The notes under the pieces are model-generated. The model had not been told where the DNA came from. It worked only from the letters and a program-made list of their open reading frames with translations, and did no database searches. The translations under genes were made by a program, and so were the position numbers. From Escherichia phage UE-S5b: a stretch of 64,000 nucleotides of DNA. The DNA lies in the sequence record PP301341.1. One strand, written 5' to 3'. Below, piece after piece: positions 16,687 through 53,201 of this stretch (the first letter of the stretch is position 1; each line of letters starts with the position of its first letter).

Positions 16687-16693
16687 TACTAAN

Positions 16694-28376: not shown

Positions 28377-28620
28377 TAGTACTATTTACCCATAGCTGGG
28401 AGGCTTTTGGTTCTTACCACGAAGACAGTCCACGCTGACNAGNCTTGGGATTGATAGTCCCGTTCCTGTGGTAATTACTCAGGCTAGGATTTAAGGAGTT
28501 CCTATTCTCCAGCGAAATTCCCGTCGANGGGAATAACAATACAATAGCAGNCACTGGACTGTCTTACCAGTGTTGTCTTTAGAGTGCNATGCAATCAGGA
28601 CTATGTTACTGCTGAATGGG

Positions 28621-33338: not shown

Positions 33339-35492
33339 TTATTTGCCAGCGTAGCGTTTAGCCACGGTGACCATTACGGTTGCATTCAATTCATCATCTG
33401 GTAATGGATTAGCCAGTTTCTTATTGAATGTGTGGACGGCTTGCTGTACTTGAGCAAAGTCCCAACCACTGTCAACCAATGCCAGTGCGTACTTAATCAT
33501 TTGATTATTACGATTACCGGAGGCAATACGACTAGCGAACCAACGCTCCAGATTATCCAACGACTGTACTTCCTTCATCTGGTTCTGGAACTGCTCGTTC
33601 TTACTAGTACGAGGAATAAAGTCACGCACATCTAACAGATTCGCATCAAGATTGTAATGATAGGAACCAGTCTCACAGGACATCCACTTCTTGGCTCGTT
33701 GGTTAGCAGACTCATCTGTTTCAAATGGTAGCCAAGCCATAACGTTATTCATGAACTCTTTGTATTCCTCAGTGTCGAGGTGTAACTCATAGTTCATTGG
33801 AATAATCAGACGGAAGCGGTTCTCTTCATCAGTATGACGCTTGGTGGTATAGGTCATGAACTTATATTCCTTCATTAGTTCATGGCACGTATGCAGGGGT
33901 ACTCCACCATCACAGTCAATAACAATCATGTTAAATCCTGGGATAACATTTTCTTCAGAACGATGCCCATTCTTCATGTGATGGTTTACCCAGTGCATAC
34001 CGGGAGCTTGGGTTAATACATGCAACTGGTCGAACGGTACACGTTCACCAATGTAGTCATAAGCAAAGCTATCACTATACGCCACAATCATCTCATTGAT
34101 GTCTGTCTCTTTAAGAGTTTCACCACGGAAGAACTCAATACCTTCATTGAAGGTCTTCTTAATGATGATGTGCTGCTTGTAACCCCATGCTGTAGCAAGA
34201 GTCATCATCTCATTACGAGCTGCATTACCACTCTTATAGAATGGTAAAGACTCCACCAAATCAGCATGGGTTACTTCTTTACCTACAGAAGCAATGTACT
34301 TAGCCAGCTTCACATAAGCCTTCTCACGATTGAGGATTGTCTGAAATGCTGCTCCAGATTCTTCTACAAGCAGAATTGCTTGTTTAAGGTGGGTCATCTC
34401 AATGAATGAACTTTGGTCAACAAACGCCAGTGCACCTGCCAGCTTAAGTGCTTTGAAATAACGGTGAGAAATTTCAGCTTTACGAATATCTTCATGGTCA
34501 GCCATAGCTTCTGCTTGCTTCTCACAATCAATTTTGTAAGCAATCAGAGCAATACCCACGGCATCTTCTACAACCATCTTAAAACCAAACAGGTTTGGGT
34601 CAGCCAGACTATGGAAATGGTTAGCCCACTTATCAAGAGTCTGTACGTTATCTTGTTTAATCAGGTTACGGTAGATTTCTTCCGGGGTTAGTGTTGCATG
34701 TGCTCTCTTGTCTAAGTGACCAGTAGCAAACAGACAGCGACGTGCATACCCTATATCGAGAAAGCCATAGAACTGGTCTTCAGTCTGACCACCATCCAGC
34801 AGCTTACTCGGAGTACCGAACAGCAGCAGGTTAGTTGGAGTTTTTCCATCCAATTCTTCACCACGAACGCTTTCAGCAGTATTCTTGGTTAGCTTCTGTT
34901 TTACTTTTCCCTGGTCATATAACTCCAGGAATAGGGTTAGTACATCCATGTTAGCCAACAGGTTCGAACCAATTTCATCAATCTGAAGATTGATTGAACC
35001 ACACCCAGCCATTAACAGCTTATGCCGTAGCTGTTTAACTGCTGGTGGAGTACCAGAGTCAAACGTAAACGGATATGCCCCGGCACGTTTATACTCTGCT
35101 TCAACTTTATCAAACTCTTCCTGCTGGTCAGTACCCTGACGAGCAGAACGTTCGTTAGCAATCTTCCATAGACGATCATTTGCAATGACGGGCATGGTGT
35201 CTTCCATAAAGCGTTTACGGAAGCCAGACATGAACCCGTCTTCAATGATATTTACTGAGTGACCTTTACCGAAACCAGATGTAGCCAACGCTATAGCGTA
35301 GATGTTTACCGGCAGGTCACCACGGTCTTTAGTTACAATGGTTGCACCCATGCAGGATGCCATTTTAGCCAAGAAGTAGGCTACTTCGACACGGAAGAAT
35401 CCCCGGTCATTATTCTGGGTTTTATTGCAGAGCACATCTACGATTTCTTCAATCGCCTGATGATGCACTACTCCGGTAAGGTCAATACTCAT
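33339..35492 (-). CDS. DNA primase with C-terminal PriCT-1-like domain (N4 gp43-like)
   Basis: About 717 aa from ATG 35492; VIDCDGG motif; C-terminal segment NQMIKYALALVDSGWDFAQVQQAVHTFNKKLANPLPDDELNATV resembles primase C-terminal domain. Confidence 0.6.
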   Translation of the reverse strand: MSIDLTGVVHHQAIEEIVDVLCNKTQNNDRGFFRVEVAYFLAKMASCMGATIVTKDRGDLPVNIYAIALATSGFGKGHSVNIIEDGFMSGFRKRFMEDTMPVIANDRLWKIANERSARQGTDQQEEFDKVEAEYKRAGAYPFTFDSGTPPAVKQLRHKLLMAGCGSINLQIDEIGSNLLANMDVLTLFLELYDQGKVKQKLTKNTAESVRGEELDGKTPTNLLLFGTPSKLLDGGQTEDQFYGFLDIGYARRCLFATGHLDKRAHATLTPEEIYRNLIKQDNVQTLDKWANHFHSLADPNLFGFKMVVEDAVGIALIAYKIDCEKQAEAMADHEDIRKAEISHRYFKALKLAGALAFVDQSSFIEMTHLKQAILLVEESGAAFQTILNREKAYVKLAKYIASVGKEVTHADLVESLPFYKSGNAARNEMMTLATAWGYKQHIIIKKTFNEGIEFFRGETLKETDINEMIVAYSDSFAYDYIGERVPFDQLHVLTQAPGMHWVNHHMKNGHRSEENVIPGFNMIVIDCDGGVPLHTCHELMKEYKFMTYTTKRHTDEENRFRLIIPMNYELHLDTEEYKEFMNNVMAWLPFETDESANQRAKKWMSCETGSYHYNLDANLLDVRDFIPRTSKNEQFQNQMKEVQSLDNLERWFASRIASGNRNNQMIKYALALVDSGWDFAQVQQAVHTFNKKLANPLPDDELNATVMVTVAKRYAGK

Positions 35493-36618
35493 GATGGAAA
35501 ATATCTCTCTCTTTGTTTGCAAATGGATGCGACAGGGCAGTATAAACAACGCTTAACCTGCCCCTCCACGACCTTGATAGCACCCTTGCCACCTTTTTCA
35601 GCCATGAAGATACGAGCAGATGCCATATCGTCAAAGTTTTTGGTACTTCTGGCTCCAGGCATATCTACCTTAGAAGCATCAGAGAAGTATTTGAACTGTG
35701 GCTCTGTTCGCCACAACTCCTCGTCAGTACATTCAGGAATTTCCTCTTCAGGAGCATCCCAGTACTTTTCGATGAGATGTATCTTCTCTTCTACCCAACG
35801 TTCAGTCTTATCGACAGATAACAACGGAATATCCTTATGCATAATACGATTAGCAGGATAGTTCGGATTGCTATTAGCCATGTGTTTCATGAAGTCAGTG
35901 AAGATGTAGTTAATACGGATTACATCCTCGGTAATGATGTCGTTGTGAATCCAACGGTACAAGCTACCTTGCATCTTGTGTTCATCATCACGGGAACCAG
36001 CAACCCAGGAATAGGTTGAGGTAGACTTAAAGTCTTGCAATAGACCTTCTGTTACGATGTCGAACTTACCCCCGATAGTCCAACCCTTAACTACCCTGGT
36101 TCCACGTTGTTCAATGTAGATTGGGATAAGGTCAGGGTTAGCATCAAAGTCTGCTTTGGTTGGGTTAATGACTACTGCATCAATTACTCGCTGAGGGTAA
36201 CCCAACTTCTTCAATGCAGTCTTATGTCCTAGCTTCCAGGCTTTCTCGATAGAATCATGCAAGCCAGTACCCATTGATGTGGAGACNTAGCATCAAAGTC
36301 TGCTTTGGTTGGGTTAATGACTACTGCATCAATTACTCGCTGAGGGTAACCCAACTTCTTCAATGCAGTCTTATGTCCTAGCTTCCAGGCTTTCTCGATA
36401 GAATCATGCAAGCCAGTACCCATTGATGTGGAGACGAAATCCATAACATCAATAGACTGGTCACTAAGGTCTACACGATGTTTCATGACGATTTGCTTAA
36501 GTGGCTTAAGCAATGTAGTTACAGACAGATACTTGGGATTGTCTACATAATCATACTCGTCATGTAATAGCCATACAGCCAGGGCCAGCGAGACATCATG
36601 GTTGTTGGTTATCTTCAT
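35489..36618 (-). CDS. PD-(D/E)XK nuclease (Cas4/RecB-like), reading frame split by a tandem duplication
   Basis: Track ORFs 35489-36274 and 36229-36618 share identical peptide MGTGLHDSIEKAWKLGHKTALKKLGYPQRVIDAVVINPTKADFDA; contains QGSLY (QhxxY-like) motif and C-terminal CLYCPVASIC cysteine cluster. Confidence 0.55.
36139..36435. repeat. perfect tandem duplication (2 x 148 bp) with N at the junction (36287)
   Basis: Unit TAGCATCAAAGTCTGCTTTGG...GATGTGGAGAC at 36139-36286 and again at 36288-36435. Confidence 0.85.
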
Positions 36619-37348
36619 CAGTAAGTAATCCTGTATCTATGCACCTGGTTCCAACGAATACTCTCTACCTCATCGAAGCTATAGCTGACTATGTTATCTA
36701 GTTCACCTTTGTACGCTACCTCAATGAACTGAAAGTTCACTGTTAGATAAGGCTTTCCATTCCCCGGGTAATGCCAGCATCTCCCAGTAGCAGTGATATC
36801 TGTGGCAGGTAATTCATCTACTAACTTCTCTTTAGTAAGAATACGATTAGCGTAATGAACCAATTTCTCACAGTCATAAACTGAAGTGTTTCCAGGTTTA
36901 CCATTACCCATACGGGCAGCAGCATTTCGCCATAGAGCTTTAAAGGCACAACCTTCATCGAAGGTCATGCCCAGTGCTTGGATAATATCCTCACACTCTG
37001 CTNTGTTAGATAAGGCTTTCCATTCCCCGGGTAATGCCAGCATCTCCCAGTAGCAGTGATATCTGTGGCAGGTAATTCATCTACTAACTTCTCTTTAGTA
37101 AGAATACGATTAGCGTAATGAACCAATTTCTCACAGTCATAAACTGAAGTGTTTCCAGGTTTACCATTACCCATACGGGCAGCAGCATTTCGCCATAGAG
37201 CTTTAAAGGCACAACCTTCATCGAAGGTCATGCCNAGTGCTTGGATAATATCCTCACACTCTGCTTGGTATGGCTCTTGCTCTTTCCGTTGGGGATTCTT
37301 AATTGTAACTACATAGTAGTTATTAAGACCACCGGAGAGCTTAGTCAT
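36618..37348 (-). CDS. DUF3310-like protein, reading frame split by a tandem duplication
   Basis: Track ORFs 36618-37043 and 36965-37348 share peptide AECEDIIQA.GMTFDEGCAFKALWRNAAARMGNGKPGNTSVYDCEKLVHYANRILTKE, resembling the DUF3310 pattern as I recall it. Confidence 0.5.
36741..37266. repeat. tandem duplication (2 x 263 bp) with N at the junction (37003) and one N in copy 2 (37235)
   Basis: Unit TGTTAGATAAGGCTTTCCATTCCCCGGG...CACACTCTGCT at 36741-37003 and repeated at 37004-37266. Confidence 0.85.
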
Positions 37349-37653
37349 TATTCCCCCTTGGGAATCATGTTTGCCTGGAACTCTGGTTCAGACATCAGGC
37401 CCAGGTTGTTAATAGATAGATAAACAATATCTTTCAAATCAACTGAGGTATCGAAACGCTGATCCAGACTAATCTTCAGTGAGTGATTGGCACGAGCCAA
37501 ATCTTTATAGGTCACATGAGGTTCGTCAGTGAGCAGCATTGTGTTCATGGTAAGCAGGGAGCCATCATCAGCTTTAGGAAGCTGGAAGATTACCTGTGCT
37601 GCCACCATCCAATGATACTTTTTGACTACAGTTTCTTTAGTACTTTTGGTCAT
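37348..37653 (-). CDS. hypothetical protein
   Basis: 101 aa ORF, start overlaps the DNA polymerase stop. Confidence 0.45.
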   Translation of the reverse strand: MTKSTKETVVKKYHWMVAAQVIFQLPKADDGSLLTMNTMLLTDEPHVTYKDLARANHSLKISLDQRFDTSVDLKDIVYLSINNLGLMSEPEFQANMIPKGE

Positions 37654-40229
37654 GCGAATGCCTTTTGAATTATTTGATGAACTTCTTCTGGGGTAGCGTG
37701 ATTTGGAATTTCAATCTCGTTAGCCCACGTTGGGTAAAACAAGGATAGTTCCCCACCCAAACCAACTTCTGGATGAGCAATATCAGGATGATCCTGCCAG
37801 TTAACGGCTTCAACCAAGTGCTTGTTCGTATACTGCAAGGTGTCCATGTTATCGCGAATCATGAAGTATTGGGCATCATGAATGTGAATACAAGGGCGTA
37901 TATCTAACCTGAACTCACTGGTTCTGACTTTACGCATAAACTCTGAGCCAGCACGGTTATTCAGTAGACACCAGCTTTGACCTAATGCGTTACCAGCAGT
38001 TCTGCCTTCTGCTTCTGCTTCATATGGAGTCTTACATGTCCCACGTAATACCTGAGCCAGTAAAGGAGTACGCACTCTCAAACCAAATGCAGCAGTTACA
38101 TAACCAGTCTTAGCAGCTTCATCTAGCTTAGCCTGAACCCACATATCACTAACTACATAGAGATCGTGATAACGTTTCTCTGTAGTCTTAGCCTTCTCTT
38201 CGGAGAAGCCACAGTTTTTCATTAAGCCCATATAAGTACCACCATAGGTAAGTAAGAAGGTTGGAGCCTTCGAGTCACTACGCAATGATTTGTACTTATG
38301 CTGAATGGAGTTAATGGATTCTACTGTGTCTTCAATGTCTGGCATCTGCTCACCAAAATAAGCATATGCGCGAAGACTATGACCGTCATAACCATCGGTA
38401 TATACCTTAAGCTTCTGTGGGTCTTTAGTCGTCAGTGCAGAGATTCTGTCTTCCAGCGAGGCGAAATCCAAGCCGCAAAATATCCAGCCTGGAGGAGCTT
38501 CGAAGCATTTCTTAATCTTCTTGGCATATTTAGAGCCGGATGGANTTGTTTGTAGATTTGGCTCTGAAGCCGATAACCTACCGGAGACTGTGCCTCCCAG
38601 ATTGAGGTTACCGAACAGGTAGTGCCAGCCATCTGGTCCCGGTTGGGCATTCCTGAAAGCTGGTATAAAGCTAGTGATAATCTTATCCACGAGCTTATAG
38701 TCGATAAGTGCATTGAGCAGTTCCTTAACATCTTCACTCTGCGTATGTGTACGCAGTGCTTTAATAGTGTCACCGTCAGTAGCAGGTTGCTTGCTCTTAG
38801 TAAGACCAAGAACCGGTAAGCCGATATAATCAAATAACAACTTCTGTAGTTGTGGACCAGAGTTAGGATTAAACTCGATGTCACAATCAGCCAGTGTTAC
38901 CTGTTTCTTTTTCAACTTAGCATTCTTATCGTCTACCCATTCCTGACGAAGCATCAGGGTAAAGTTCTTCATGAGGTTAGACTCACGAATAGTTTTCAGA
39001 GCCTGGTTCCTGTCAGTTTCCATTTCTTCAGCTACTTGGTTAACGGTTTCCATATTCATGGGCATACCGGTTAACTGCATCTGAATAATGTCTTCACAGG
39101 CTGGTTTAAAGATGTTGTTGTAAACATCTAGTTGGTCATCGGCAATGAGAGTATCCCAGTGCTTCTCATAAGTGTACCAAGTACACAATCCATCAATGAG
39201 GTTGTAGCGTAGCAATTGCTCATTGGGTATAAGACGTATGTCTTTAATATCATCCTGAGCATAGTTACCAGCATATTCCTGAGCCTGGTCTTTCAGACTA
39301 AGGTGATTACCAGCACAACTGTTAGTAGCCAAGTAGGTAATTAACTTAGTACAGTCCCAATTGCGTAGCATGATCTCCATGCCGTGCAGTAAGCCTTCCG
39401 TATCAATCAGGTTATCCATGAACAGCTGATAGATAAGTATGTACACGTCATAGCTAATGTTGTGATACATCTGCCGTTGGGTGTACTTAATGAAGAACTC
39501 ACGCAGAAGGTTTCGAACAATATCATTACGGTTGATACGCCCGTATGGTGCTTCTGTAGCCCCAGGAATTGGCTCGTAGTCCACATTAAAGGCTATGCCT
39601 TGTGTCTTACTCCAACAGAATGTAATTGTTCCTATACCAGCGTTATAATGCTTTAAACCGAATGCTTCGATGTCTATAGCCAAAGGCTTATTCATCTCAA
39701 GCAACTGGTCTAACCAGGCTTTAATCTTCTCAGGAGTATCTGGATAGGCTTCAAACTCAATGATTCCCTGACCTGGTTCAGCATACTGCCCACGTATATG
39801 GTTGAGTAATGCATCCATACCCTGAGCAATCTTGGATTTCACTACAGGTGGGTCATAAAATACCTGCCTGTAGCTAGGCGTATAGATAACCTTCTGCTTA
39901 CCCCATACTGAGTCACAAACATAGCCGAGGTTAGCCTCTGCTTTAGCTTCCTTAGTCAGTATTTTAAAGTAGTCAGAATCGGTACAGATAATGTATTGAG
40001 TTTCCGCATCATCCAGTACTTGTTGCAGTTCCTGCTGTATGAACTCCTTAATCTCCCTTGCAGGAGTCTTCTTCTTGCCTGGAGCAGAATGAAGTTCAAT
40101 GAAGATGAAGTCTTCCATGCTTAGGTCATAAGGCAGCAGGTAGGTTTTAATCATCTCCTCCCTTCGGATTTGATGACCGAGGATAGCAATAGGATACTTA
40201 CCAGTATCCTGAGAGGTGATGTAACGCAT
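37650..40229 (-). CDS. DNA polymerase, family A, with 3'-5' exonuclease domain (N4 gp39-like)
   Basis: 859 aa; Exo I-like AIDIEAFG, motif A-like DFASLEDRI, motif B-like K..FLLTYGGTY, motif C-like IHIHDA. Confidence 0.85.
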   Translation of the reverse strand: MRYITSQDTGKYPIAILGHQIRREEMIKTYLLPYDLSMEDFIFIELHSAPGKKKTPAREIKEFIQQELQQVLDDAETQYIICTDSDYFKILTKEAKAEANLGYVCDSVWGKQKVIYTPSYRQVFYDPPVVKSKIAQGMDALLNHIRGQYAEPGQGIIEFEAYPDTPEKIKAWLDQLLEMNKPLAIDIEAFGLKHYNAGIGTITFCWSKTQGIAFNVDYEPIPGATEAPYGRINRNDIVRNLLREFFIKYTQRQMYHNISYDVYILIYQLFMDNLIDTEGLLHGMEIMLRNWDCTKLITYLATNSCAGNHLSLKDQAQEYAGNYAQDDIKDIRLIPNEQLLRYNLIDGLCTWYTYEKHWDTLIADDQLDVYNNIFKPACEDIIQMQLTGMPMNMETVNQVAEEMETDRNQALKTIRESNLMKNFTLMLRQEWVDDKNAKLKKKQVTLADCDIEFNPNSGPQLQKLLFDYIGLPVLGLTKSKQPATDGDTIKALRTHTQSEDVKELLNALIDYKLVDKIITSFIPAFRNAQPGPDGWHYLFGNLNLGGTVSGRLSASEPNLQTXPSGSKYAKKIKKCFEAPPGWIFCGLDFASLEDRISALTTKDPQKLKVYTDGYDGHSLRAYAYFGEQMPDIEDTVESINSIQHKYKSLRSDSKAPTFLLTYGGTYMGLMKNCGFSEEKAKTTEKRYHDLYVVSDMWVQAKLDEAAKTGYVTAAFGLRVRTPLLAQVLRGTCKTPYEAEAEGRTAGNALGQSWCLLNNRAGSEFMRKVRTSEFRLDIRPCIHIHDAQYFMIRDNMDTLQYTNKHLVEAVNWQDHPDIAHPEVGLGGELSLFYPTWANEIEIPNHATPEEVHQIIQKAFA

Positions 40230-40238
40230 AGCTTTACC

Positions 40239-40769
40239 TTAGAAAATCAGATGGGAAGCTGCATAGTACTCAATAGAAGGCAGAATCTTCTCATACTGCT
40301 TAATTGCCATAGCATCACCAGCAAGTGTCCAGGCTGCTTCACGAATACGTGGCAGTTCCTTGTACTTACCAGTCTGGTCTTGGGCTACCAGACACTCAGG
40401 TAAAGCATCACGTACATCCTGATAGGACATACAACCACGAACCAGACGATATACAGTCTGGTTCACAAGGTGTACTTCCATAATCAAACGACTGGAGGCT
40501 TTCAGATACTTGTCCATTGCAGGCCATAGTTCTGGATTAAGAGTTAGCCGCTCACCGTAGGTGGGAGGTCTGGTAGCATTAGAACGCTGATAGAACTCTC
40601 CCTGGTGAAGGAATCCAGCCGATACATCTACACCGTTAATACGGTCATTCTTATCAATAATACTGTTTAACACACCATCAAGACGAACCAGTTCTGCTAA
40701 GAACAGGTGTTTGACTATCTCGCTGCTATTGGCAACCTGACCAATAGTCGCTGAACCAATCTGAGGCAT
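40239..40769 (-). CDS. hypothetical protein
   Basis: 176 aa ORF between helicase and polymerase. Confidence 0.5.
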   Translation of the reverse strand: MPQIGSATIGQVANSSEIVKHLFLAELVRLDGVLNSIIDKNDRINGVDVSAGFLHQGEFYQRSNATRPPTYGERLTLNPELWPAMDKYLKASSRLIMEVHLVNQTVYRLVRGCMSYQDVRDALPECLVAQDQTGKYKELPRIREAAWTLAGDAMAIKQYEKILPSIEYYAASHLIF

Positions 40770-40779
40770 ATATCCTCCC

Positions 40780-42090
40780 TTAGAAAGTTAGACCACCATA
40801 CTTACTGGCAAGATTGCCATAGAACACTACACGCTTACGAGCGCGAGACACAGCGACGTAAAGCAGACGGGCAACCATATCTGGTTGGCGACAGCTTGAG
40901 AGGTCATTTGCATCAATGAAGATTGTGTCGTAAGTAGAGCCTTGTGATTTATGGACAGTACATGCATGAGTAGCACGCAGGTCTGGAATGGTTTCTTTAA
41001 GACGGAAGTAAGGTTCCCAGTTCTTCTCCTTACCTAACCACTTAACCAAACGGTTGAAGTAGTCTGGGTCAGTAGGTACTGGAACTTCACTTACAATGCC
41101 ACCATAGCCTAGGTCAAGAGTACTATCACGAACTTCCAGTTCCAGGTCACCTGTAACCTTAATCATGCGAGTACTACTATCCTGGTCAATGAGTTTTACG
41201 TCCTGTTCAATAGATAAACGATTATCCACACCCAAGCGAACAGCAGAGTTAGAAACTAACTGTTCACCGATGGAGTATTCACCCACATAACCGTTAGCTT
41301 CACGAATGTAGTTATTGTAATTAATAACCTGGTCATTTGTGTAAGCAACAATACGGCTGTTGGTAGGTTGAGTGAAGTGACTGAGAACCAATTTCTCCAT
41401 CTCTTCCTCCTGTACCCAGTCAATGATACCTGGGATACATTTAATTGGCAGGAAGCCTGTCTTACCTTCCACCGTATCACGCAATTGCTGGTGCAATACT
41501 TTAAGTTCCGGTGCATCAGTACGCATCTGTTCAGTCAGATAGTGTGTTGGGATATTACCTGCGTATACCGGAGACTTATTCTCTTTAACAGGCAAAAGCT
41601 GAGAAGCATCACCTACAAATACCAGTTTGCACTGGTGAGTACCTTCACGAGCATACTTAAGTAACTGACGGTCAATCATGGATGCTTCGTCTACGAAGAT
41701 GATTTTGTTCTTCTTAATATTGAATGATTTAGACGGCACTACGTTAGCCTCACCAGTCTTAAAATCATTCTTAACAATCAGACCCTGGAAGGAGTGATAG
41801 GTAGATGTTGGACGTCCTGTAGCTTGAGCCAGTACTTCAGCAGCTTTGTTCGTGGTCGCAGTCATGACAACTTCGTTATACAGAGGCTTGGTTCCCATAA
41901 GGGAGCAAGTTTCCATATATGCAGGCATAGTGTCATCAATGAGGTGCGACATCAGGAATGTCTTACCAGTACCACCTGGGCCTGAAATTCCAAATTCGGT
42001 AGCATTAGGGTCGAGCAGGAAGTCGAAGAACTCCTTCGCAACCGCTTCTTGCCCCTTGTTCAGTGGGGCTTTGGTAGGTTTGGAAAACAT
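40780..42090 (-). CDS. SF1 DNA helicase (Dda/RecD-like)
   Basis: Walker A GPGGTGKT, Walker B IFVDEASMID; 436 aa. Confidence 0.8.
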   Translation of the reverse strand: MFSKPTKAPLNKGQEAVAKEFFDFLLDPNATEFGISGPGGTGKTFLMSHLIDDTMPAYMETCSLMGTKPLYNEVVMTATTNKAAEVLAQATGRPTSTYHSFQGLIVKNDFKTGEANVVPSKSFNIKKNKIIFVDEASMIDRQLLKYAREGTHQCKLVFVGDASQLLPVKENKSPVYAGNIPTHYLTEQMRTDAPELKVLHQQLRDTVEGKTGFLPIKCIPGIIDWVQEEEMEKLVLSHFTQPTNSRIVAYTNDQVINYNNYIREANGYVGEYSIGEQLVSNSAVRLGVDNRLSIEQDVKLIDQDSSTRMIKVTGDLELEVRDSTLDLGYGGIVSEVPVPTDPDYFNRLVKWLGKEKNWEPYFRLKETIPDLRATHACTVHKSQGSTYDTIFIDANDLSSCRQPDMVARLLYVAVSRARKRVVFYGNLASKYGGLTF

Positions 42091-42100
42091 TAAAATCTCC

Positions 42101-42124
42101 AGTAAAAAACCCTCCGTAGAGGGT
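42101..42124 (-). terminator. rho-independent terminator
   Basis: ACCCTC-CGTA-GAGGGT with A-run on + (U-run on -), overlapping the stop of gene 42124-42591. Confidence 0.5.
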
Positions 42125-42591
42125 TAGATGTAAGGGGTTAAATCCGGGGGAGTGTAGTCTTTCCCCTTCATGACTTTCTTATTCTCATTGAAGACAGGTT
42201 CCCCATCTTCAAACTTAGAATAGTTAGAGCGATTGACTTCATTCAATGCTCCAGGGACATTCATCCCAAGGAAAGTACCGACGCCGGTTGCTGTAACAAT
42301 CTGGTCAGCAAGACTATCAAGGATAGCTAAACGATGGCTGTTCGGTGCATATACCTCTTTGTCATCTTTTTTCATTAAATCAGACAATTCGGTTAATGCT
42401 GCAATGGCATTGTGAAGAATATCGTAAGCATCTTCTGAGTTAGCGTATAACTCGTCTAGCATCTCTACTACTTCTTCCAGATGACAACCAATCTGGGTAC
42501 TAATATTCTTACTCGTCGGATTTGGTACTGCTTTCCGGAACCAGGCTTCCGTATTTGCCAGCGTACAAACGGATGAACTTGTCATGCTCAC
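42124..42591 (-). CDS. putative MazG-like nucleotide pyrophosphohydrolase (tentative)
   Basis: All-alpha pattern GCHLEEVVEMLDE...LADQIV..TG...ALNEVNRSNYSKF reminiscent of MazG/HisE-type NTP pyrophosphatases. Confidence 0.35.
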   Translation of the reverse strand: MSMTSSSVCTLANTEAWFRKAVPNPTSKNISTQIGCHLEEVVEMLDELYANSEDAYDILHNAIAALTELSDLMKKDDKEVYAPNSHRLAILDSLADQIVTATGVGTFLGMNVPGALNEVNRSNYSKFEDGEPVFNENKKVMKGKDYTPPDLTPYI

Positions 42592-42904
42592 TCTCTTGGT
42601 TAAGGTGGCGATTATTATATGCCTCCAGAATTAAGTCTCTTACGTATGAGCGAATCTCATAAGCAGGACCAACTTGTTCTGATAGCCAATCAGCCACATG
42701 GGTTGGTAAAGGACGTAATACGTTTTCCATGAATGTCCGACGTGTGTCGGCTGGTTCAATGTTTAAAGAACGCAATCGCAAAGTAACCGTAGTGGGGTGA
42801 ACCCCCAACGTCTTAGCGATAGTTGCGAGGGATAGCCCAACAGCATTCATACGAATGATGTCTTCATCAGTTGCTTTGCGATTACTTCTGAATACTTTAC
42901 TCAT
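42509..42904 (-). CDS. helix-turn-helix DNA-binding protein
   Basis: ATG 42904 preceded by AGAGGAA; HTH-like segment IIRMNAVGLSLATIAKTLGVHPTTVTLRLRSL. Confidence 0.5.
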   Translation of the reverse strand: MSKVFRSNRKATDEDIIRMNAVGLSLATIAKTLGVHPTTVTLRLRSLNIEPADTRRTFMENVLRPLPTHVADWLSEQVGPAYEIRSYVRDLILEAYNNRHLNQESEHDKFIRLYAGKYGSLVPESSTKSDE

Positions 42905-42966
42905 AGTACAATTCCTCTTCAAATTTACCCTCACTTTATTACAAGTGAGGGCATTTGAACAGGCTA

Positions 42967-45027
42967 TTACTTAACTGCTTTAACCAGCTTGGTAGCTAAT
43001 TTAGCTTCTTCTTCAGTCAGACCCATTGCAGTGAATGACTTCTTAGCATGACGTTTATAGTCTTGCAGAGCATGGCCTTTCTGATAGTCAGAATATGACG
43101 TATCGTTCAGGATGCTACGCAGATTATCAACGTGTTTACCAGAAGGAGCTACTTTAGAAGCAGCAGCAGAACGTGTAGGTTTAACTGTCTTATCCTGCTT
43201 AACAGCTTTAGGTTTACCAATAGGCTTAATTGTATAGGTAGCACGTACATCAGCAATCTTAGCTACCACGTCACTACCTACATCAAATGCAGCCCAAGGC
43301 TTACGAGCTTTGGAACGCAGTTCTACCAGAAGGTCAGCAGCAGCTAACTTATCTTCTGGTGTTGTTGCATTAAGGAACTCTTTAACCAGTTCCTGGATTT
43401 GTTCTTTCACAGTAGGAGCCTTCTTAATAACGGGTTTAAGGTCAGTAGCCTTCACTGGTTCAGCAGCTACAGCTTCATTCAGTGACTCTTCCATGTCCAG
43501 TGCTTCTTTGCTAGCAACTGTACGGAATTGTTCTACAGAACCAGATGTGAGATTGGTGTATTTGAGGTTAGTACCACGATGTCCACCAACCATAATAAGT
43601 GTGGTAGGTGAACTATGGTTCCCAACGATGGCATCATTAAGTAGTTTCTTACCTACTTCAGTTTTAGACAAATAGATACCACTGTTAACGTTATTACGTT
43701 CCTCTTCCGGCAGTTCAGCAATAATGTGATACGCAGATACACGCATCTTATTAGTGCTGTACTGAGGAACAGCAAATACATCTTCTGGTGCTACTTTACC
43801 AAGGATAGTTACGTTACCACCGAAGCTACGAATATAGCTCATGGATGCTACATGCAGACCGTTAGAACAGTCCTGACGACGGTCAGGATCTACCAGGTCT
43901 TCCCGTACCTGCACTTTACAGCCTACCCACTGTTTGATGTTACCTGAGTGACAGTCAACGAATACACGTTTACCATCTTCTTTCCCTTTATACTGAAGGC
44001 GTTTAAGGAACAGGATTGAACCATCATCAGCGATAGGCAATTCAGCAGTTTCCATGAACTTCATCAGGTCTTCTACTGAGTGCAGACGGTCTTTAATAAC
44101 CGGAGCCAGACGCTCAAGGAACTTAGTGAAGCCCTTGTAGTCTTTCAACTTGGCAGACTGACGTAAGTGACGTTGCAGGTTCTCAACTCCAGGGATAACC
44201 CCATCGTTGGTAACAGCAACAACCACTTCATCTTCCTTCACATCAGTGTGAAAGTTAGCGTTATCAGTACTAATAGCACCTAATGCAGCTAATTTCTCGG
44301 ATGCAGCAGCCAGCTTATCCTGGTTCGTAGTTTTAGCTACTTCAATGTAAGGTGGTGGGGTATGTTTACGGCTGGTAAATACAATATGTACACCTTTGAT
44401 ATGCTTGGCTTGTTTAGCAAACTCACCCATTTCATCATCGGATACTGCACGAACTGCAACAGGCCATTCCTGTCTGAGCATGGTGTTGGTTTGTTCATAC
44501 CCCCAACCCATTACGTCGTTAATAAAACGAACCAGTGCAGGATAGTTATGGTCCTTATCCCAGCCAGTAATCCACATCAGATTGTCACGTCTGTCGTAGC
44601 AACCATCTGATACTGTTACTTCTGGTTCATTAGCTTGTACAGCCAGGAATGTATCCATAGCTTTAGATACTAATGTCTTGGTGGGATTGCCTAGCTTAAT
44701 ATCAGAAACGGCTTGGGTAGGTTGAACATCTGTACCATCCTGGAAGAACTCTTTGAGTTTAGCTTTAGCTACCTTGAAGAAACGGACGAATCCATTAGTG
44801 TTCTTCTCTGCTTCCAGATACTCATTACGCAGTGATACTTCTGGTGCAATGTTTACTTCTATCAGGTCTTTGGTAATTCCCAAGCCTTTGGTTTGTGCTT
44901 CAGATACGATACGAGCAACCCGTGGGTCGCTCTGTGGATATACAATTGTGGAGCCATCAGGCTTCCACAATGTTAAGTTTCGACTGTCAACTGCCAGTGC
45001 GATGATAGAAATCAGTTCGATTTTCAT
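42967..45027 (-). CDS. rIIB: rIIB-like protein
   Basis: 686 aa ORF immediately downstream of the rIIA-like gene; assigned by pairing and size. Confidence 0.5.
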   Translation of the reverse strand: MKIELISIIALAVDSRNLTLWKPDGSTIVYPQSDPRVARIVSEAQTKGLGITKDLIEVNIAPEVSLRNEYLEAEKNTNGFVRFFKVAKAKLKEFFQDGTDVQPTQAVSDIKLGNPTKTLVSKAMDTFLAVQANEPEVTVSDGCYDRRDNLMWITGWDKDHNYPALVRFINDVMGWGYEQTNTMLRQEWPVAVRAVSDDEMGEFAKQAKHIKGVHIVFTSRKHTPPPYIEVAKTTNQDKLAAASEKLAALGAISTDNANFHTDVKEDEVVVAVTNDGVIPGVENLQRHLRQSAKLKDYKGFTKFLERLAPVIKDRLHSVEDLMKFMETAELPIADDGSILFLKRLQYKGKEDGKRVFVDCHSGNIKQWVGCKVQVREDLVDPDRRQDCSNGLHVASMSYIRSFGGNVTILGKVAPEDVFAVPQYSTNKMRVSAYHIIAELPEEERNNVNSGIYLSKTEVGKKLLNDAIVGNHSSPTTLIMVGGHRGTNLKYTNLTSGSVEQFRTVASKEALDMEESLNEAVAAEPVKATDLKPVIKKAPTVKEQIQELVKEFLNATTPEDKLAAADLLVELRSKARKPWAAFDVGSDVVAKIADVRATYTIKPIGKPKAVKQDKTVKPTRSAAASKVAPSGKHVDNLRSILNDTSYSDYQKGHALQDYKRHAKKSFTAMGLTEEEAKLATKLVKAVK

Positions 45028-45031
45028 CAGA

Positions 45032-47599
45032 TTAGTTACCTTTCAGTTTATTTAGACGATTACGGTAGAGGGACTTAAACCCAGGAATATCCTCTGGATT
45101 TTTCTTGAGGTGTTTAACTAAACTCCCCAAGTCCAGACTCTGTAGTATGTCACCAGCACTCCAGCTATAGCTGAATAACCCCTTGTACTGATTAAGTATT
45201 TCAAAGTACTTATGATTACGCGGATTAACCATCATTGTATATGGCTCTAAGTCATCAACTGACTTAATACAACCCATTTCAACAAGTTTTTCTTTGTTGT
45301 TATGTGGTCGATTCCGTAGAAAGTCATATGCCCATTCATACTCTGGTTTAAAAATCAGATTCTGTAATGGTTTGAATGTTAGACCAAGAATATCGAGGAT
45401 TTCCCAGTATTCCCTGTCATCTAATCCTACATATTCCAGAATACCAATACGGTGTTCAGTAACATATTTCTTGAAGCCTTTGCTGGTAATAACTGGCATC
45501 AGCTCCATAAAACGAACGTCATCAATGTGAATAGCACCACGTCGTTTAGCTTTGTTAGCTTCAATTTGATTGCGACAGACAACAGTCTCTGCTTTCATCT
45601 CGTCAGATAACTCATACCATTTCCACATGGTTCCAATCCGAGCAGTTACAGGACTACCAGAACTAACCTGATTGGCTAGTACGTAGTACTTAGGCTGTTC
45701 CACTTCAACGAAACCGTACTTCTCATGGAAGCTTGGGTCAGTAAAATCCTTGTCAATGTACGGCTTAGAATCCCAATCCCCACTTTTATTTCGTACAGGA
45801 GTAGTACCGAGAACTGCATTCAACGAAATCAGAGCATTAGTTTTACCCCCTGCTTTGGTTTTATTGGCAGCTATCGTCTTAGCTCGTTTCTCAGCAGCTA
45901 TCTTAGCTTGTTCTCTGCGGTAGTTAGTTGGTTTGTCCCACTCATTATATTGAGTGAGGTCAATTACCCGATAACCCATAGCAGTGAACTTAGCTACAGC
46001 TTCTTCTGCTGCACCCTTTTTAGGACTAACGACGTGAACAAAAGCTGTACGCTCCAGGTCACCTCGGTTGTACTCAGGGAAGTATGAGAAAGAGTCTGCA
46101 CAGTCAGATAAACGTCGAGTAACTACAACGTTCTTGGTAGTGAATATACCAATACTCTGGTGGGAGTTATGGTACATCTTAAAGTAGTCAGTAAGTTTGC
46201 CTTTTATCAGGTCTACAAAGTTACCCTGGTTCATTATGTAACCAGACCATTTAATGCCAGTAGCTTTTAAATCAGCAAGCTGAGGTAAGTGCAGATGACG
46301 ATATACTAATTCCTGGAATGAGGAATATGTATTTGCTTCACGAGTATCCTTAAGGGCACGCATAGCCTTACCATACAACTTCTTAAGACCTGCATATTCG
46401 GGACGAGCTAGTAATGCTTTGTTAGATAAGTTACGCCAGTGCTTGATGTGATGCTTACGTTGCTTAGCCCATAAACTAGAGGACATATAACTTTGAACAA
46501 TTGGGTCTGTAACAGCAAGTAGGAAAGATGGATACTCCCAAAAGCGAGTAGAGGATTTAGAGGCGTATTCTTCAACCTGCTTAATAGCTTCAGGAATTTT
46601 AGCCCTAATCTCTTTCTCCATACGGTCTACTAAATCTACACACAGAGTAGTAATACCATCGTCAGTTAACTTCTGGTTAGACAGTGTTTCTCGACTAGGA
46701 GCAATAGCTAGAGTATCAGGTGCAGCCTGAACCACCAGATTAGAAGCACCAATGATATTCATAAAGTTGAGGATAAGACCTACAGCCTCTTCACTAGCTG
46801 GGCTGGATACAATTGGGTACATTACGTTACCGTAACGAACGAATATGTTACTGTTACCCATATAGCCTTGATACCATCTATCAGACATATCGTATGAACC
46901 AGGTTCAAATGACATTCCTAGTGTATTCAGTAGAGTGTAGTCACCTTGCTGAATACTATTACCTTCTTCTGTTTTAACGAGTTTAGGGATACTAAGTTCA
47001 GCTTTAATCTCACCGTTAAATACTATTGATGTGATGTAATGTACAAAGGTATTTAAATCATGCTTGCCTAACTGGAATTTAACTTCCAGCCCAGATTCCT
47101 CAGTAGGAATATTAGTAACAATAGGAACAATGCCTGGTTTACCGTCATTCTCAATCGCAGCTTTAGCTACGTTATATACCGACATCTTTCCCTGGTTCCA
47201 TGAAGTAACCTGGAAGCTATCTGTATAAGCGAACGGGGATTTACATCCCAGACCAAAACCACCAGTAACACTACTGTTGGCTTTCTTAGTAGATGCACCA
47301 TAGACACCATAAATGGAACCAATGAGTTCATCGGGGATGCCATTACCAAAGTCACGGAAGGTAATAAAGTTGTCTGTATCAATAGTGATACGAATAGGGG
47401 TATCAGTCTTACCTGCTTCAATATGAGCATCCCAACTGTTACAGATAGTCTCACGGACTACTGCCAGAGTAGGATTGTTATATAAGGAAGTACTTAATAC
47501 ATGGAAGAATGCCGGGTCATCAGAGATGCCAAAGGCAATTGTTTCTTTGCCACCCAGTGTCGCTGAGGTAGCTACTTCATTGGTATCTGCAACTAACAT
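45032..47599 (-). CDS. rIIA: rIIA-like protein with N-terminal GHKL-type ATPase fold
   Basis: 855 aa; N-box-like ETICNSWDAH and G-rich GGFGLGCKSPF near the N-terminus. Confidence 0.65.
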   Translation of the reverse strand: MLVADTNEVATSATLGGKETIAFGISDDPAFFHVLSTSLYNNPTLAVVRETICNSWDAHIEAGKTDTPIRITIDTDNFITFRDFGNGIPDELIGSIYGVYGASTKKANSSVTGGFGLGCKSPFAYTDSFQVTSWNQGKMSVYNVAKAAIENDGKPGIVPIVTNIPTEESGLEVKFQLGKHDLNTFVHYITSIVFNGEIKAELSIPKLVKTEEGNSIQQGDYTLLNTLGMSFEPGSYDMSDRWYQGYMGNSNIFVRYGNVMYPIVSSPASEEAVGLILNFMNIIGASNLVVQAAPDTLAIAPSRETLSNQKLTDDGITTLCVDLVDRMEKEIRAKIPEAIKQVEEYASKSSTRFWEYPSFLLAVTDPIVQSYMSSSLWAKQRKHHIKHWRNLSNKALLARPEYAGLKKLYGKAMRALKDTREANTYSSFQELVYRHLHLPQLADLKATGIKWSGYIMNQGNFVDLIKGKLTDYFKMYHNSHQSIGIFTTKNVVVTRRLSDCADSFSYFPEYNRGDLERTAFVHVVSPKKGAAEEAVAKFTAMGYRVIDLTQYNEWDKPTNYRREQAKIAAEKRAKTIAANKTKAGGKTNALISLNAVLGTTPVRNKSGDWDSKPYIDKDFTDPSFHEKYGFVEVEQPKYYVLANQVSSGSPVTARIGTMWKWYELSDEMKAETVVCRNQIEANKAKRRGAIHIDDVRFMELMPVITSKGFKKYVTEHRIGILEYVGLDDREYWEILDILGLTFKPLQNLIFKPEYEWAYDFLRNRPHNNKEKLVEMGCIKSVDDLEPYTMMVNPRNHKYFEILNQYKGLFSYSWSAGDILQSLDLGSLVKHLKKNPEDIPGFKSLYRNRLNKLKGN

Positions 47600-47642
47600 T
47601 TATTTACTCTCCAGATTAAATGTTGCTTCTTGGTTATGACTA

Positions 47643-47867
47643 TTAAGAATCTAATGCTGATTTACAGGCTTCAAAGATTACTTTACGTAATTCCCGTTCT
47701 TTTTCCGGTTCCTCGTGGGGACTGTAACCAAAGGGACTGTTTTGCATAAAACTAGCCAGAATTAGTAAATCTTCTTCAGATAGACCATCAATAGCGATGG
47801 AGTATTGGTTTTTGCTTTTTACTGTAGCGTTAGCCATTTCGTTTCTCCGCCATTGCTTGTAGTACAA
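47643..47867 (-). CDS. hypothetical small protein
   Basis: 74 aa ORF. Confidence 0.4.
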   Translation of the reverse strand: MYYKQWRRNEMANATVKSKNQYSIAIDGLSEEDLLILASFMQNSPFGYSPHEEPEKERELRKVIFEACKSALDS

Positions 47868-48192
47868 ATACTACAGCATCTGAAATTTGGTCATCGGTTG
47901 GTTCAACTAATTGACCATTCTCATCATACATTTCTTTCAGAAGTGCATTCAGTTCAGCCATACCAGCCAATACCATTTCCTTACTTGGTTCCAGCCATAA
48001 CTTACGTTCCTCTGCCAATGCAGCAATGCACATACACAGGGACGCAATATTTGCTGGGCAAGCAGCAATATCACCAGTTACCACAATTTCACTAAGTGGA
48101 ACAGCTTTACCGGTTTTACTATGAATAACTTCAGGATTAATCATGGATTTGCTCCAGGTTATGAGCAGGAATAGGGAAGCATGGATAGTCAC
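47830..48192 (-). CDS. hypothetical protein
   Basis: 120 aa ORF. Confidence 0.4.
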   Translation of the reverse strand: MTIHASLFLLITWSKSMINPEVIHSKTGKAVPLSEIVVTGDIAACPANIASLCMCIAALAEERKLWLEPSKEMVLAGMAELNALLKEMYDENGQLVEPTDDQISDAVVFVLQAMAEKRNG

Positions 48193-48379
48193 CGGTAGGG
48201 TCCAGTGTTACTGATACATGCAGTGTATTTGTCATTTGGGTTAACATCAGAGCAGCATTGAAATCGTCCTGGATACAGGCATATACAATGTCACCCTTCT
48301 CTCCCTCACACATTACAGGTGTGTCTTTGATACGGTATTTAGCAGGCATATGCCCTCCTAAAAGAGTTAATAGAATCAA
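48137..48379 (-). CDS. hypothetical small protein
   Basis: 80 aa ORF. Confidence 0.4.
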   Translation of the reverse strand: MILLTLLGGHMPAKYRIKDTPVMCEGEKGDIVYACIQDDFNAALMLTQMTNTLHVSVTLDPTGDYPCFPIPAHNLEQIHD

Positions 48380-48383
48380 AAAA

Positions 48384-48403
48384 AGACCTCCCGGAGGAGG
48401 TCT
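48384..48403 (-). terminator. rho-independent terminator
   Basis: AGACCTCC-CGGA-GGAGGTCT with A-run on +. Confidence 0.5.
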
Positions 48404-48408
48404 TAGGT

Positions 48409-48648
48409 TTACTTACGACTTCCTTCTACGAAAAGTCGTATTTGTTTTTTCACTTCTTCTTTCTCACGTATTGCTTCGTAGTCACGAGCAAAGTAGTAAA
48501 CACACCATAATCCAATTTCACTTACAAAGAACAGAATACTAGCTCGAATGAACTGCATATCTGTTTCTACTACAAAGGCAACTTTGTATGCGTAGGTAAG
48601 TGTTAATAGGGTACTAATTAGCATTGCGTACAGAGCTAGTTTTTTCAT
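48409..48648 (-). CDS. small membrane protein
   Basis: 79 aa with two hydrophobic helices. Confidence 0.4.
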   Translation of the reverse strand: MKKLALYAMLISTLLTLTYAYKVAFVVETDMQFIRASILFFVSEIGLWCVYYFARDYEAIREKEEVKKQIRLFVEGSRK

Positions 48649-49589
48649 TCAGTAATAGTCTCACCAGGAATTAACTTACGGAATTGGATAAAGTGAAGCA
48701 GGTTACCTGAGTACAGATTCCCTTCTTTATCCATGGATGTAACACCTTGTTCCCATGTAACTGGGTTCATGTTATTTACATACTTCTCACCAAGGTTCAT
48801 AGGTGTAGCCTGATGTTCCGTTGGGGAAGCATGAATAGGTTGGTTTTCCACTAACTTAGCGAATAAGCCAAGGTCTTCCTCGATAGTAGATGGTCGTCCT
48901 TCGAAGTTGTTATAGGAAGCACGAGCACAGCGTGCAGCACTTACTTTGAGAAGTAGTCCATGCACTTCTGCATCACTTGGTTCATCGCGTGTAACTCGAT
49001 TGCGTTTGCAGAAATTGTAAGCCCCAACACGGTCAATATGAGCAATNTANGGCANATGCCATTGCCCATATGGTAATGCTCTNGGTGTNCTTTCTTCCTG
49101 TGCCTTACGCATTGCTTGAGCCAGTTCACGAATCTCTGGTTGTGCATCTTTGTGGTCACGCAGTCCATAGAAATTAGCCCAGCTGGTTGAAGTTACCACT
49201 ACACGAATATGCGTGAATGGTTCCAGAATACGGTTAACAATCTGCTTATGTACTTGCCCACGTCGTAGCTGTTCTGCATACACAGCAGCAGCAGATGCAG
49301 CGTTATCCCAGATAAACTTAGCATCCTCAATCTCCATAGGAGTGAGTTCTTCTTCTGCTTGCATACCTTTCTGGTTCTTGCCCCAGTGACTAGGCATCAC
49401 TGGTTCATTACGAACTTGTTCGATGAACTTAGCCGTGGGAATAGCACGACTGCTTGANGCATTACGGTTGAATACACGGTGNGTCATAAACTCACTGTGA
49501 ATGAATCGGGGATAAACCAATTCAAAGGTAGTAATACGAGTTCCTGTTTCTGGGTGAACGGAATCTGCAATGACAGTTGCCTTAATCAT
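48645..49589 (-). CDS. thyX: flavin-dependent thymidylate synthase (ThyX-like)
   Basis: ThyX-type motif HRVFNRN.SSSR (RHR-x7-S like); 314 aa; several N. Confidence 0.6.
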   Translation of the reverse strand: MIKATVIADSVHPETGTRITTFELVYPRFIHSEFMXHRVFNRNXSSSRAIPTAKFIEQVRNEPVMPSHWGKNQKGMQAEEELTPMEIEDAKFIWDNAASAAAVYAEQLRRGQVHKQIVNRILEPFTHIRVVVTSTSWANFYGLRDHKDAQPEIRELAQAMRKAQEEXTXRALPYGQWHXXXIAHIDRVGAYNFCKRNRVTRDEPSDAEVHGLLLKVSAARCARASYNNFEGRPSTIEEDLGLFAKLVENQPIHASPTEHQATPMNLGEKYVNNMNPVTWEQGVTSMDKEGNLYSGNLLHFIQFRKLIPGETITE

Positions 49590-49921
49590 TAGAATGACCT
49601 TAGATAGTTGGTGATACCACTACGGTTTTCTGTAATTTTCTTAACCTGAACATATACCAGCTTAAACTCACTACGGGGTAGTTCTTGTAATACTGCTACA
49701 CCTTCAGTAAGGGCCACAGAACACGCTACAGCGGTTTCTTTTTTAAAGGAGTATAAGTCTTCATACATGAGGGCTTCATACTCCCTGCGGAGCATACAGA
49801 GAGCATCTCTTGCCTTATCACTTACTTCTTGTGAACCAGCAGACATAGCTAAGCTGTATATGATAAAGATTTGTTCAAAAACAAAGTCCAGTAATCGCTT
49901 TACGGTTGAGTTCATACTCAT
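49589..49921 (-). CDS. hypothetical protein
   Basis: 110 aa ORF. Confidence 0.45.
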   Translation of the reverse strand: MSMNSTVKRLLDFVFEQIFIIYSLAMSAGSQEVSDKARDALCMLRREYEALMYEDLYSFKKETAVACSVALTEGVAVLQELPRSEFKLVYVQVKKITENRSGITNYLRSF

Positions 49922-49984
49922 CCTCTATGCCTTTATTATAAAGAACAGGATTTCGCTCCCTTTTCCGTAGGAATGGGATACGCA

Positions 49985-50365
49985 TTAGTATTTACTACCT
50001 CTTCTATACCAAGGGTAATGATGGGTAGTGCTCTTGCCTTTGAATACATCCTTAGTACGAGGATTCTTTTGTATTTGAGCCAGGTAAAGATACGTATCAT
50101 CCCTACATGGGCTAAGCCAGAACTTATCTATGATTCGGTCTACCTTAGATTTCAGATGAGGTTCCGGAGGAATGTATGAAGGAAAAGGTCTGCTAATAGT
50201 CCATCCTTTTTGAACAAGAGCCTGCATTGTCGTGTAAAGATCTAACTCAATTTCATTCTCTACTTGATCATGGATAGTTTTACCTAGAGTAAGCATTGCA
50301 GTTTGTTCTAGCTTACTTAAGTCCAGCCCTTGCAGGATAGACTTACCATTTTGTCTGCTTGACAT
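49985..50365 (-). CDS. hypothetical protein
   Basis: 126 aa ORF. Confidence 0.45.
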   Translation of the reverse strand: MSSRQNGKSILQGLDLSKLEQTAMLTLGKTIHDQVENEIELDLYTTMQALVQKGWTISRPFPSYIPPEPHLKSKVDRIIDKFWLSPCRDDTYLYLAQIQKNPRTKDVFKGKSTTHHYPWYRRGSKY

Positions 50366-50381
50366 AAGAGTACCTGTAAAT

Positions 50382-50407
50382 AAAAAAGCCCACGGGTTAG
50401 GTGGGCT
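50382..50407 (-). terminator. rho-independent terminator
   Basis: AGCCCAC-loop-GTGGGCT with A-run on +. Confidence 0.5.
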
Positions 50408-50459
50408 TGGGTTAGGAGATGGATAAGCAATGAGCTGGAAGTAACTTCCACAAGCATCA

Positions 50460-50762
50460 CTATGTAATGATGCTTAGGTTAGTTACTCTGANTTTACTGC
50501 CACCATTGGTTTGAACAACAGTTACGTTTGTAACTTGGTTCTGACCTTTGTTGGACAGTGACCAAATCAGTGCTACTACCCAGAAGACTAAAGACCAGCC
50601 TAATACAATATTAAGCACACCAATGCCCCACTTGGAGGCATGGCCTCGTGCAAAAGCAATGATAGTAGGGATGAGGTATACAGCTAATACAAACAACATA
50701 ACAAGGATTGCTGCTAAAGATTCCATGATGGTTCCTATGTGAGGTTGAGTTAGTTTCTTCAC
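50460..50762 (-). CDS. membrane protein (two TM helices)
   Basis: 100 aa; hydrophobic stretches LAAILVMLFVLAVYLIPTIIAF and IGVLNIVLGWSLVFWVVALIW. Confidence 0.45.
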   Translation of the reverse strand: MKKLTQPHIGTIMESLAAILVMLFVLAVYLIPTIIAFARGHASKWGIGVLNIVLGWSLVFWVVALIWSLSNKGQNQVTNVTVVQTNGGSKXRVTNLSIIT

Positions 50763-50799
50763 AAATAGCCCAACTATGCTGGGCTATTTAGGCAGCTAC

Positions 50800-51009
50800 T
50801 TACTCAGCATCTTTGCTTGCAGGAGCAAGAGCTTTCTTCAGGTAATTGCGTACTGAACGATAGGTTTCTTTAGTATCCATAGCACTATCATTTACGAAAG
50901 TGATACGTGCACAATCAGACAGCGGAATCTGCTCCACTGCAATTACATTTGCAGCATTAATGGTTACACGTACATCTGAGGTTGCATGAGTTACTTGAAA
51001 TACTGACAT
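50800..51009 (-). CDS. hypothetical small protein
   Basis: 69 aa ORF. Confidence 0.4.
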   Translation of the reverse strand: MSVFQVTHATSDVRVTINAANVIAVEQIPLSDCARITFVNDSAMDTKETYRSVRNYLKKALAPASKDAE

Positions 51010-51039
51010 GTTGTTTCCTTAATTAAGCCGGATAGCCTT

Positions 51040-51546
51040 TTATTTTGAAGGTCTAGCAGCTACTGGTTTGTTTTCCTGATTCTGATACTTACCATTGTAA
51101 TTAGCAGGTTCTTGAACCAGATGAAATAATACTTGAGCTATCCCAGCACCAGCCGGGATATGCAATTTCTTACGACCGTGATAGACCAGTTCGAGGGTAA
51201 GATACCCTTTCCATCCTGGTTCTATTACGGTATTGAACACTGATAATGCACGTCTTGCCCATGTAGACTTATCGTGAACGATTGCTACACAGGACGGGGA
51301 CATGTTGAACTTCTCAATTGCTGAGGCCAAGGCGAACTTACCGAGATGGCGTGATACTTGATTTCCATCAACGACTTTCACCATTGGAATCAGCCCAAAT
51401 AAGCGATAGAAGGTAATATCTTGTTTGATACGAATATCATAACCAGCTTCACCTAATCCATAGCTTACACCATGCTCTGATACCTTATGGTCTGGGACAT
51501 CCAGCAACTGAGATGAACGGTATAGAGAATTACCATTAACAACCAT
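51040..51546 (-). CDS. dCTP deaminase-like (dUTPase fold)
   Basis: Pattern GYDIRI...IEPGWKGYLTLEL...AGIAQVLF typical of dCTP deaminase family. Confidence 0.6.
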   Translation of the reverse strand: MVVNGNSLYRSSQLLDVPDHKVSEHGVSYGLGEAGYDIRIKQDITFYRLFGLIPMVKVVDGNQVSRHLGKFALASAIEKFNMSPSCVAIVHDKSTWARRALSVFNTVIEPGWKGYLTLELVYHGRKKLHIPAGAGIAQVLFHLVQEPANYNGKYQNQENKPVAARPSK

Positions 51547-53197: not shown

Positions 53198-53201
53198 TAT
53201 T

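Follow-up and report, generated by a model that had tools for sequence, protein, structure and literature searches.

Genes and repeats of the replication locus

The window, i.e., the whole 64 kb stretch of DNA that was analysed, belongs to a Gamaleyavirus (N4-like podovirus, Schitoviridae). The locus considered here lies in the replication module, where the genes follow each other, all on the minus strand, in the order primase, exonuclease, 155-aa protein, 101-aa protein and DNA polymerase I. According to the St11Ph5 RefSeq record these five genes are the equivalents of N4 gp43 to gp39. In the record as it stands, the exonuclease gene and the gene of the 155-aa protein, called gp41-like below, are each represented by two fragment ORFs.

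33339-35549, minus strand: primase or "DNS protein" gene (N4 gp43-like), the downstream neighbour; coordinates are those of the ORF as listed, and the start annotated in relatives gives 717 aa
35489-36274, minus strand: C-terminal fragment ORF of the exonuclease gene, 261 aa, all authentic, starting at the internal Met66
36229-36618, minus strand: N-terminal fragment ORF of the exonuclease gene, 129 aa, of which about 110 residues are authentic and are followed by X and a frameshifted tail
36618-37043, minus strand: C-terminal fragment ORF of the gp41-like gene (N4; PHROG 9919), 141 aa, 128 authentic
36965-37348, minus strand: N-terminal fragment ORF of the gp41-like gene, 127 aa, 116 authentic
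37348-37653, minus strand: gp40-like gene (PHROG 5974), the upstream neighbour, 101 aa, intact
37650-40229, minus strand: DNA polymerase I gene (N4 gp39-like), intact except for one N

Both split genes coincide with tandem repeats. The repeats were found by reading of the sequence, by repeat search, by Tandem Repeats Finder and by base-by-base extension, and all four agreed on their borders. In the list below, left, middle and right piece denote the three parts into which the window falls when aligned to the related phage UE-S5a, as described in the next section.

36139-36286: repeat 1, copy 1, 148 nt, the 3' end of the left piece, ending at UE-S5a 46201
36287: N of junction 1, either a single-base spacer or the next true base left uncalled
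36288-36435: repeat 1, copy 2, 148 nt, the 5' end of the middle piece
36741-37002: repeat 2, copy 1, 262 nt, the 3' end of the middle piece
37003: N of junction 2
37004-37265: repeat 2, copy 2, 262 nt, the 5' end of the right piece, beginning at UE-S5a 46507

With x standing for the N, the letters read ...GTGGAGAC-x-TAGCATC... at junction 1 and ...CTCTGCT-x-TGTTAGAT... at junction 2. The copies of repeat 1 are 100% identical and are separated by a single N, which gives a period of 149; the 148 bp unit with an N at its junction, as described in the initial annotation, was found exactly at these positions. A single N likewise separates the copies of repeat 2, with a period of 263. Here the tandem arrangement and the junction N of the initial annotation stood, while its 263 bp unit consists of 262 exact bases plus the N, a length of 263 requiring the N to be taken as T. 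The second repeat is also not exact to the letter as had been stated, since copy 2 carries an additional N at 37235 where the equivalent position of copy 1, 36972, is C; all other bases agree. A scan of the whole 64 kb window gave no further direct repeat of 40 nt or more, and Tandem Repeats Finder reported two arrays in total, both of them these repeats. As the sole direct repeats of at least 40 nt in the window, they cannot be ascribed to chance.

Both periods leave a remainder of 2 when divided by 3; each repeat therefore causes a frameshift, and the paired fragment ORFs have the duplicated peptides in common. The description of two genes appearing as overlapping ORFs with shared peptides is thus accurate, with four fragment ORFs on the minus strand. 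When the locus was collapsed, i.e., when one copy and the N were removed from each repeat, uninterrupted ORFs of 326 aa and 155 aa were restored: the exonuclease gene minus 149 nt is 981 nt long, and the gp41-like gene minus 263 nt is 468 nt long. These are the gene lengths annotated in UE-S5a, UE-M6 and St11Ph5. The collapsed proteins are identical to those of UE-S5a over their entire lengths (326/326 and 155/155 residues). At the nucleotide level the exonuclease gene differs from that of UE-S5a at 15 positions, and with an unchanged protein all 15 changes are synonymous, a pattern that points to an intact gene, one under selection.

These results bear directly on the possibility that the duplications are genuine, either in the phage or in a subpopulation, having arisen by replication slippage or illegitimate recombination and leaving the exonuclease and the gp41-like protein truncated or split, perhaps complemented by co-infecting strains. 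Tandem duplications do occur in phage genomes, which counts in favour of such an origin and against an artefact; the copies are exact and tandem, and the fragment ORFs together hold every residue of each protein. Nevertheless, two independent frameshifting events within 1.1 kb of conserved replication genes would be needed, in an exonuclease gene whose changes against UE-S5a are all synonymous. A genuine duplication that is compatible with its genes would not be expected to shift the frame in two conserved genes, nor to be absent from all listed relatives, as is the case here. A defined junction would also be expected, whereas an ambiguous base stands exactly at each joint. Microhomology at the repeat borders was sought as a sign of true slippage; there was none at repeat 1 and 2 nt at repeat 2, which is not a meaningful length at either and is uninformative. 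We regard a genuine origin of the duplications as very improbable.

The 326-aa collapsed protein matches PHROG 2139, annotated as "exonuclease", with E=1e-151, and more weakly (1e-10) PHROG 1706, "CRISPR/Cas system associated" (Cas4-type). Its match to Pfam PDDEXK_1 has E=0.004 and 17.5 bits, under the 22-bit cut-off. Reading of the protein sequence revealed D137 in GKFDIV, D146-F-K148 in QDFK, and Cys247, Cys308, Cys311 and Cys317, that is, a D...(D/E)xK motif together with a four-Cys cluster (C...CxxCx5C). By analogy we take D137, D146-x-K148 and the four cysteines to be those of a Cas4/AddB-type PD-(D/E)XK nuclease with an Fe-S cluster. The label PD-(D/E)XK nuclease, given to this gene in the initial annotation, is therefore strongly supported by PHROG 2139 as far as "exonuclease" is concerned and weakly by Pfam PDDEXK_1. 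The label "DUF3310-like" for the other gene is unsupported, as the 155-aa protein had no match to Pfam DUF3310 even at E<=10, and none in NCBIfam. The family that fits it best, PHROG 9919, has no known function, and the N-terminal part of the protein, about 87 aa, also matches PHROGs annotated as 3'-phosphatase/5'-polynucleotide kinase.

Related phages and the three-piece arrangement

Over 25 kb around the locus, Escherichia phages UE-M6, UE-S5a and UE-M3 have an identity of 99.6-99.7% to the window, and 99.7% is the highest identity among the matching phage records. The three are phages of uropathogenic E. coli, originating from Pakistani sewage (PMC11927229). The genome of UE-S5a has a 401-bp direct terminal repeat (PMC11927229), and the last 401 nt of the window (63600-64000) match both ends of that genome; the window hence ends at the physical genome end used in the records of that laboratory.

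Comparison with homologous genes in related phages had been proposed as a check in the initial annotation, and it was carried out here. Sixty phage records matched the locus, five of which matched a short part of the query and were set aside; in none of the remaining 55 did the span of the locus fit the duplications. UE-S5a, UE-M3, St11Ph5, PhAPEC7 and others have a span of 1889 nt and the window one of 2301 nt, and the former equals the latter less the two periods (1889 = 2301-149-263). Spans of at least 2401 nt occurred only together with an HNH homing-endonuclease gene between the primase and exonuclease genes. This insertion, present in UE-M6, PBM-2 and PBM-3, was considered as a source of the extra length and rejected, because it enters at about 35490, elsewhere than the repeats, and the window is without it. 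Patterns spanning the two junctions, with any base allowed at the N, had no match in IMG/VR viral, JGI metagenome or GTDB genome contigs. The 261-aa fragment ORF, looked up as an exact protein sequence, had no match either. As a control, the normal sequence over the right border of repeat 1 was found in four IMG/VR Gamaleyavirus contigs. Single-copy spans in the relatives, together with collapsed lengths and proteins equal to those of UE-S5a, were thus the outcome of the comparison. That no listed relative has a fitting span and that the junctions are absent from the three contig collections scanned is what a false duplication predicts; for a genuine duplication both are a difficulty. The true locus is a standard N4-like replication module with a 326-aa exonuclease, putatively of the Cas4-like PD-(D/E)XK type, and with all of its genes intact.

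When the window was compared with the complete UE-S5a genome by local BLAST, it fell around the locus into three colinear pieces, whose ranges in UE-S5a overlap and which break exactly at the two Ns.

Window 1-36286: left piece, UE-S5a 9915-46201
Window 36288-37002: middle piece, 715 nt, UE-S5a 46054-46768
Window 37004-49896: right piece, UE-S5a 46507-59399

The middle piece overlaps the left one by 148 nt and the right one by 262 nt. Overlapping colinear pieces are the signature of contig ends that were not merged, one of the marks of false duplication, and this geometry is what butting together pieces with truly overlapping ends, without merging, produces. For a genuine duplication it is an awkward coincidence that the arrangement follows the pattern of unmerged contigs. 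Overlaps of 148 and 262 nt fit no single k-mer size, and the exact software step can therefore not be named.

Two further irregularities were seen elsewhere in the window. At 49896/49897 the window has a 47-nt deletion relative to UE-S5a (59400-59446), UE-M6 and U1G, by which the homologue of UES5a053, a 147-aa hypothetical protein, is frameshifted. Neither flanking direct repeats nor an N at the joint were found at this site. It is probably another assembly error and, less probably, a real loss of DNA. Inside the homologue of UES5a054, positions 50182-50259 form an indel-rich stretch that diverges from UE-S5a.

Ambiguous bases and strain heterogeneity

The window contains 64 Ns, mostly single and clustered; clusters include 3562-3628, 7440-8062, 16580-16693, 28440-28588, 49047-49089 and 58248-58311. 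Fifty-three N positions are covered by all of UE-S5a, UE-M6 and U1G and could be examined for polymorphism among these three phages. Polymorphic columns held 39 of the 53, compared with 6.6% of ordinary positions, an enrichment with a binomial P of about 7e-35. When the 3562-3628 cluster was aligned with five relatives, its Ns coincided with variable columns, and at every N in this cluster UE-S5a and UE-M6 differ. That the Ns are low-quality read tails or mark differences from UE-S5a in particular was rejected, as they do not lie near the SNPs between the window and UE-S5a. From their concentration at strain-polymorphic sites it follows that an N marks a position where reads disagree, and that reads from at least two co-occurring strains were combined in the consensus. 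The sequenced material was a mixture of near-identical Gamaleyavirus strains, and the record may be chimeric over its whole length. The Ns are in this sense the footprint of a strain mixture and not of random low quality.

A further difference was observed at 57728-58005, between the two early RNA polymerase subunit genes, where a 79-aa ORF lies on the minus strand (57773-58012). This ORF is 99.7% identical to PBM-2 and PBM-3; UE-S5a and UE-M6 carry a gene for an HNH homing endonuclease instead. The N cluster 58248-58311 adjoins the ORF, and the site together with its adjoining Ns fits heterogeneity around a homing site.

The two haplotypes can be followed into the repeats. In the collapsed region the window equals UE-S5a up to 36071 and UE-M6 over 36436-37238, so that repeat 1, which occupies positions 740-887 of the collapsed locus, falls within the zone where the haplotype switches. 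A mosaic of the window's own lies in the same zone, at collapsed positions 798-861, corresponding to window 36197-36260 in copy 1 and 36346-36409 in copy 2. It was also observed that the 15 synonymous substitutions relative to UE-S5a are gathered in about 340 nt of the exonuclease gene (36197-36535), part of the patch being equal to UE-M6 and part unique, and that this patch lies about 650 nt from the site of the HNH gene of UE-M6, PBM-2 and PBM-3. Gene conversion may have produced the patch, or the consensus may be chimeric here.

The base that truly follows the left piece, found at window 36436, differs between UE-S5a (A) and UE-M6 (G), and the N at 36287 can be read as that A/G base left uncalled. 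As to junction 2, more distant relatives vary at one of the candidate bases (collapsed position 1192) but not at the other (1455). In the relatives examined, each junction thus has only one polymorphic candidate for the "true" base. That both junctions should have at least one variable candidate by chance has a probability of about 0.09 (about 9%), and the observation is accordingly suggestive only: it fits an artefact and does not decide for it. The additional N at 37235 lies where UE-S5a and UE-M6 differ (C/T), and copy 1 has C there; this suggests that each copy of repeat 2 was called on its own, from a subset of the same reads. A heterogeneous source, as is characteristic of false duplications, is evident from the 39 of 53 Ns on polymorphic columns, from the haplotype switch and mosaic at repeat 1 and from the N at 37235.

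A mixed population is at the same time the circumstance in which a duplicated and hence defective genome could be complemented. The duplications would then be real in a subpopulation of a mixed stock, with the defective genome rescued by intact co-infecting strains, or with the fragments reassembling into functional proteins; we find this scarcely credible, even less so than a genuine duplication in general.

Origin of the tandem repeats

Taking all artefact routes together, and judging from the sequence record and its relatives, we consider the tandem duplications very probably to be stitching errors of a draft consensus. The initial annotation had favoured an assembly or consensus artefact, and this reading gained support from the relatives, the collapse of the locus, the frame shifts, the three-piece geometry, the Ns and the absence of the junctions elsewhere. 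The two "split" replication genes are almost certainly ordinary intact genes, and the duplications very probably belong to the record, not to the phage.

The course of events may have been as follows. Strains in the sample would differ in a small mosaic patch of the exonuclease/gp41 region, at which the assembly would break into three pieces, one ending at 36286, one comprising 36288-37002 and one starting at 37004, with ends that truly overlap by 148 and 262 nt. Strain heterogeneity is a condition in which assemblers leave redundant overlapping contigs. If the pieces were put end to end by a scaffolder or by hand with the overlaps unmerged, each overlap would be present twice, and a subsequent consensus call would give N at the joint bases, where there was no consensus. 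The SSPACE scaffolder, within the A5-miseq pipeline, writes a single "n" between contigs whose expected overlap is left unmerged; our literature search for a scaffolder behaving in this way found no documentation, and the present argument does not rely on it.

A particular route to the same artefact is that the 715-nt middle piece (36288-37002) was a gap-closing amplicon, a Sanger read or a tiling amplicon that was pasted by hand between two contigs, untrimmed and with an N at each end. In length it resembles a single Sanger read or a small amplicon; it shares sequence with both neighbours, and its two ends coincide exactly with the Ns. No other pasted pieces occur elsewhere in the record, however, and the other Ns reflect strain heterogeneity and not read-end quality, so that we hold this route for possible but rather unlikely. 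Stitching errors in general remain the reading that we prefer, whichever the route.

The consequences are mainly a matter of curation. Gene callers applied to this record will return four fragment ORFs in place of two intact conserved replication genes, and comparative analyses would then count a spurious gene disruption or duplication. Since the consensus may be a chimera of strains, neither mosaic patterns resembling recombination nor the 47-nt deletion should be given a biological reading without the reads.

After collapse, the replication module of the window is identical to that of UE-S5a in the order of its genes, in their lengths (981 and 468 nt) and in the proteins they encode. Compared with UE-S5a, UE-M3, UE-M6 and other Gamaleyaviruses (G7C/N4-like), the window is set apart by the 149-nt and 263-nt repeats, the 64 Ns, the 47-nt deletion and the 79-aa gene of PBM-2/PBM-3 type, which stands where UE-S5a has an HNH gene. 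A hallmark of false duplications, according to Ko et al. (2022, Genome Biol 23:205, PMC9516828), is that in heterogeneous material the members of a duplicated pair lie on the same scaffold with a gap between them, and in the window an N stands exactly between the copies at both 36287 and 37003, which corresponds to the gap or ambiguous base described there. The closest likeness is to the heterotype and homotype false duplications of the Vertebrate Genomes Project (PMC9516828), which are likewise adjacent pairs on one scaffold with N between them. Both arise from a heterogeneous sample, the heterogeneity consisting of haplotypes in the vertebrates and of co-occurring phage strains here, and both give spurious extra or fragmented gene models. 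The window differs from the vertebrate cases in being of phage scale (148 and 262 nt) and in having one N where those have a sized gap. Unlike divergent vertebrate haplotypes, its copies are identical but for one N against C, and in this they resemble unmerged contig ends.
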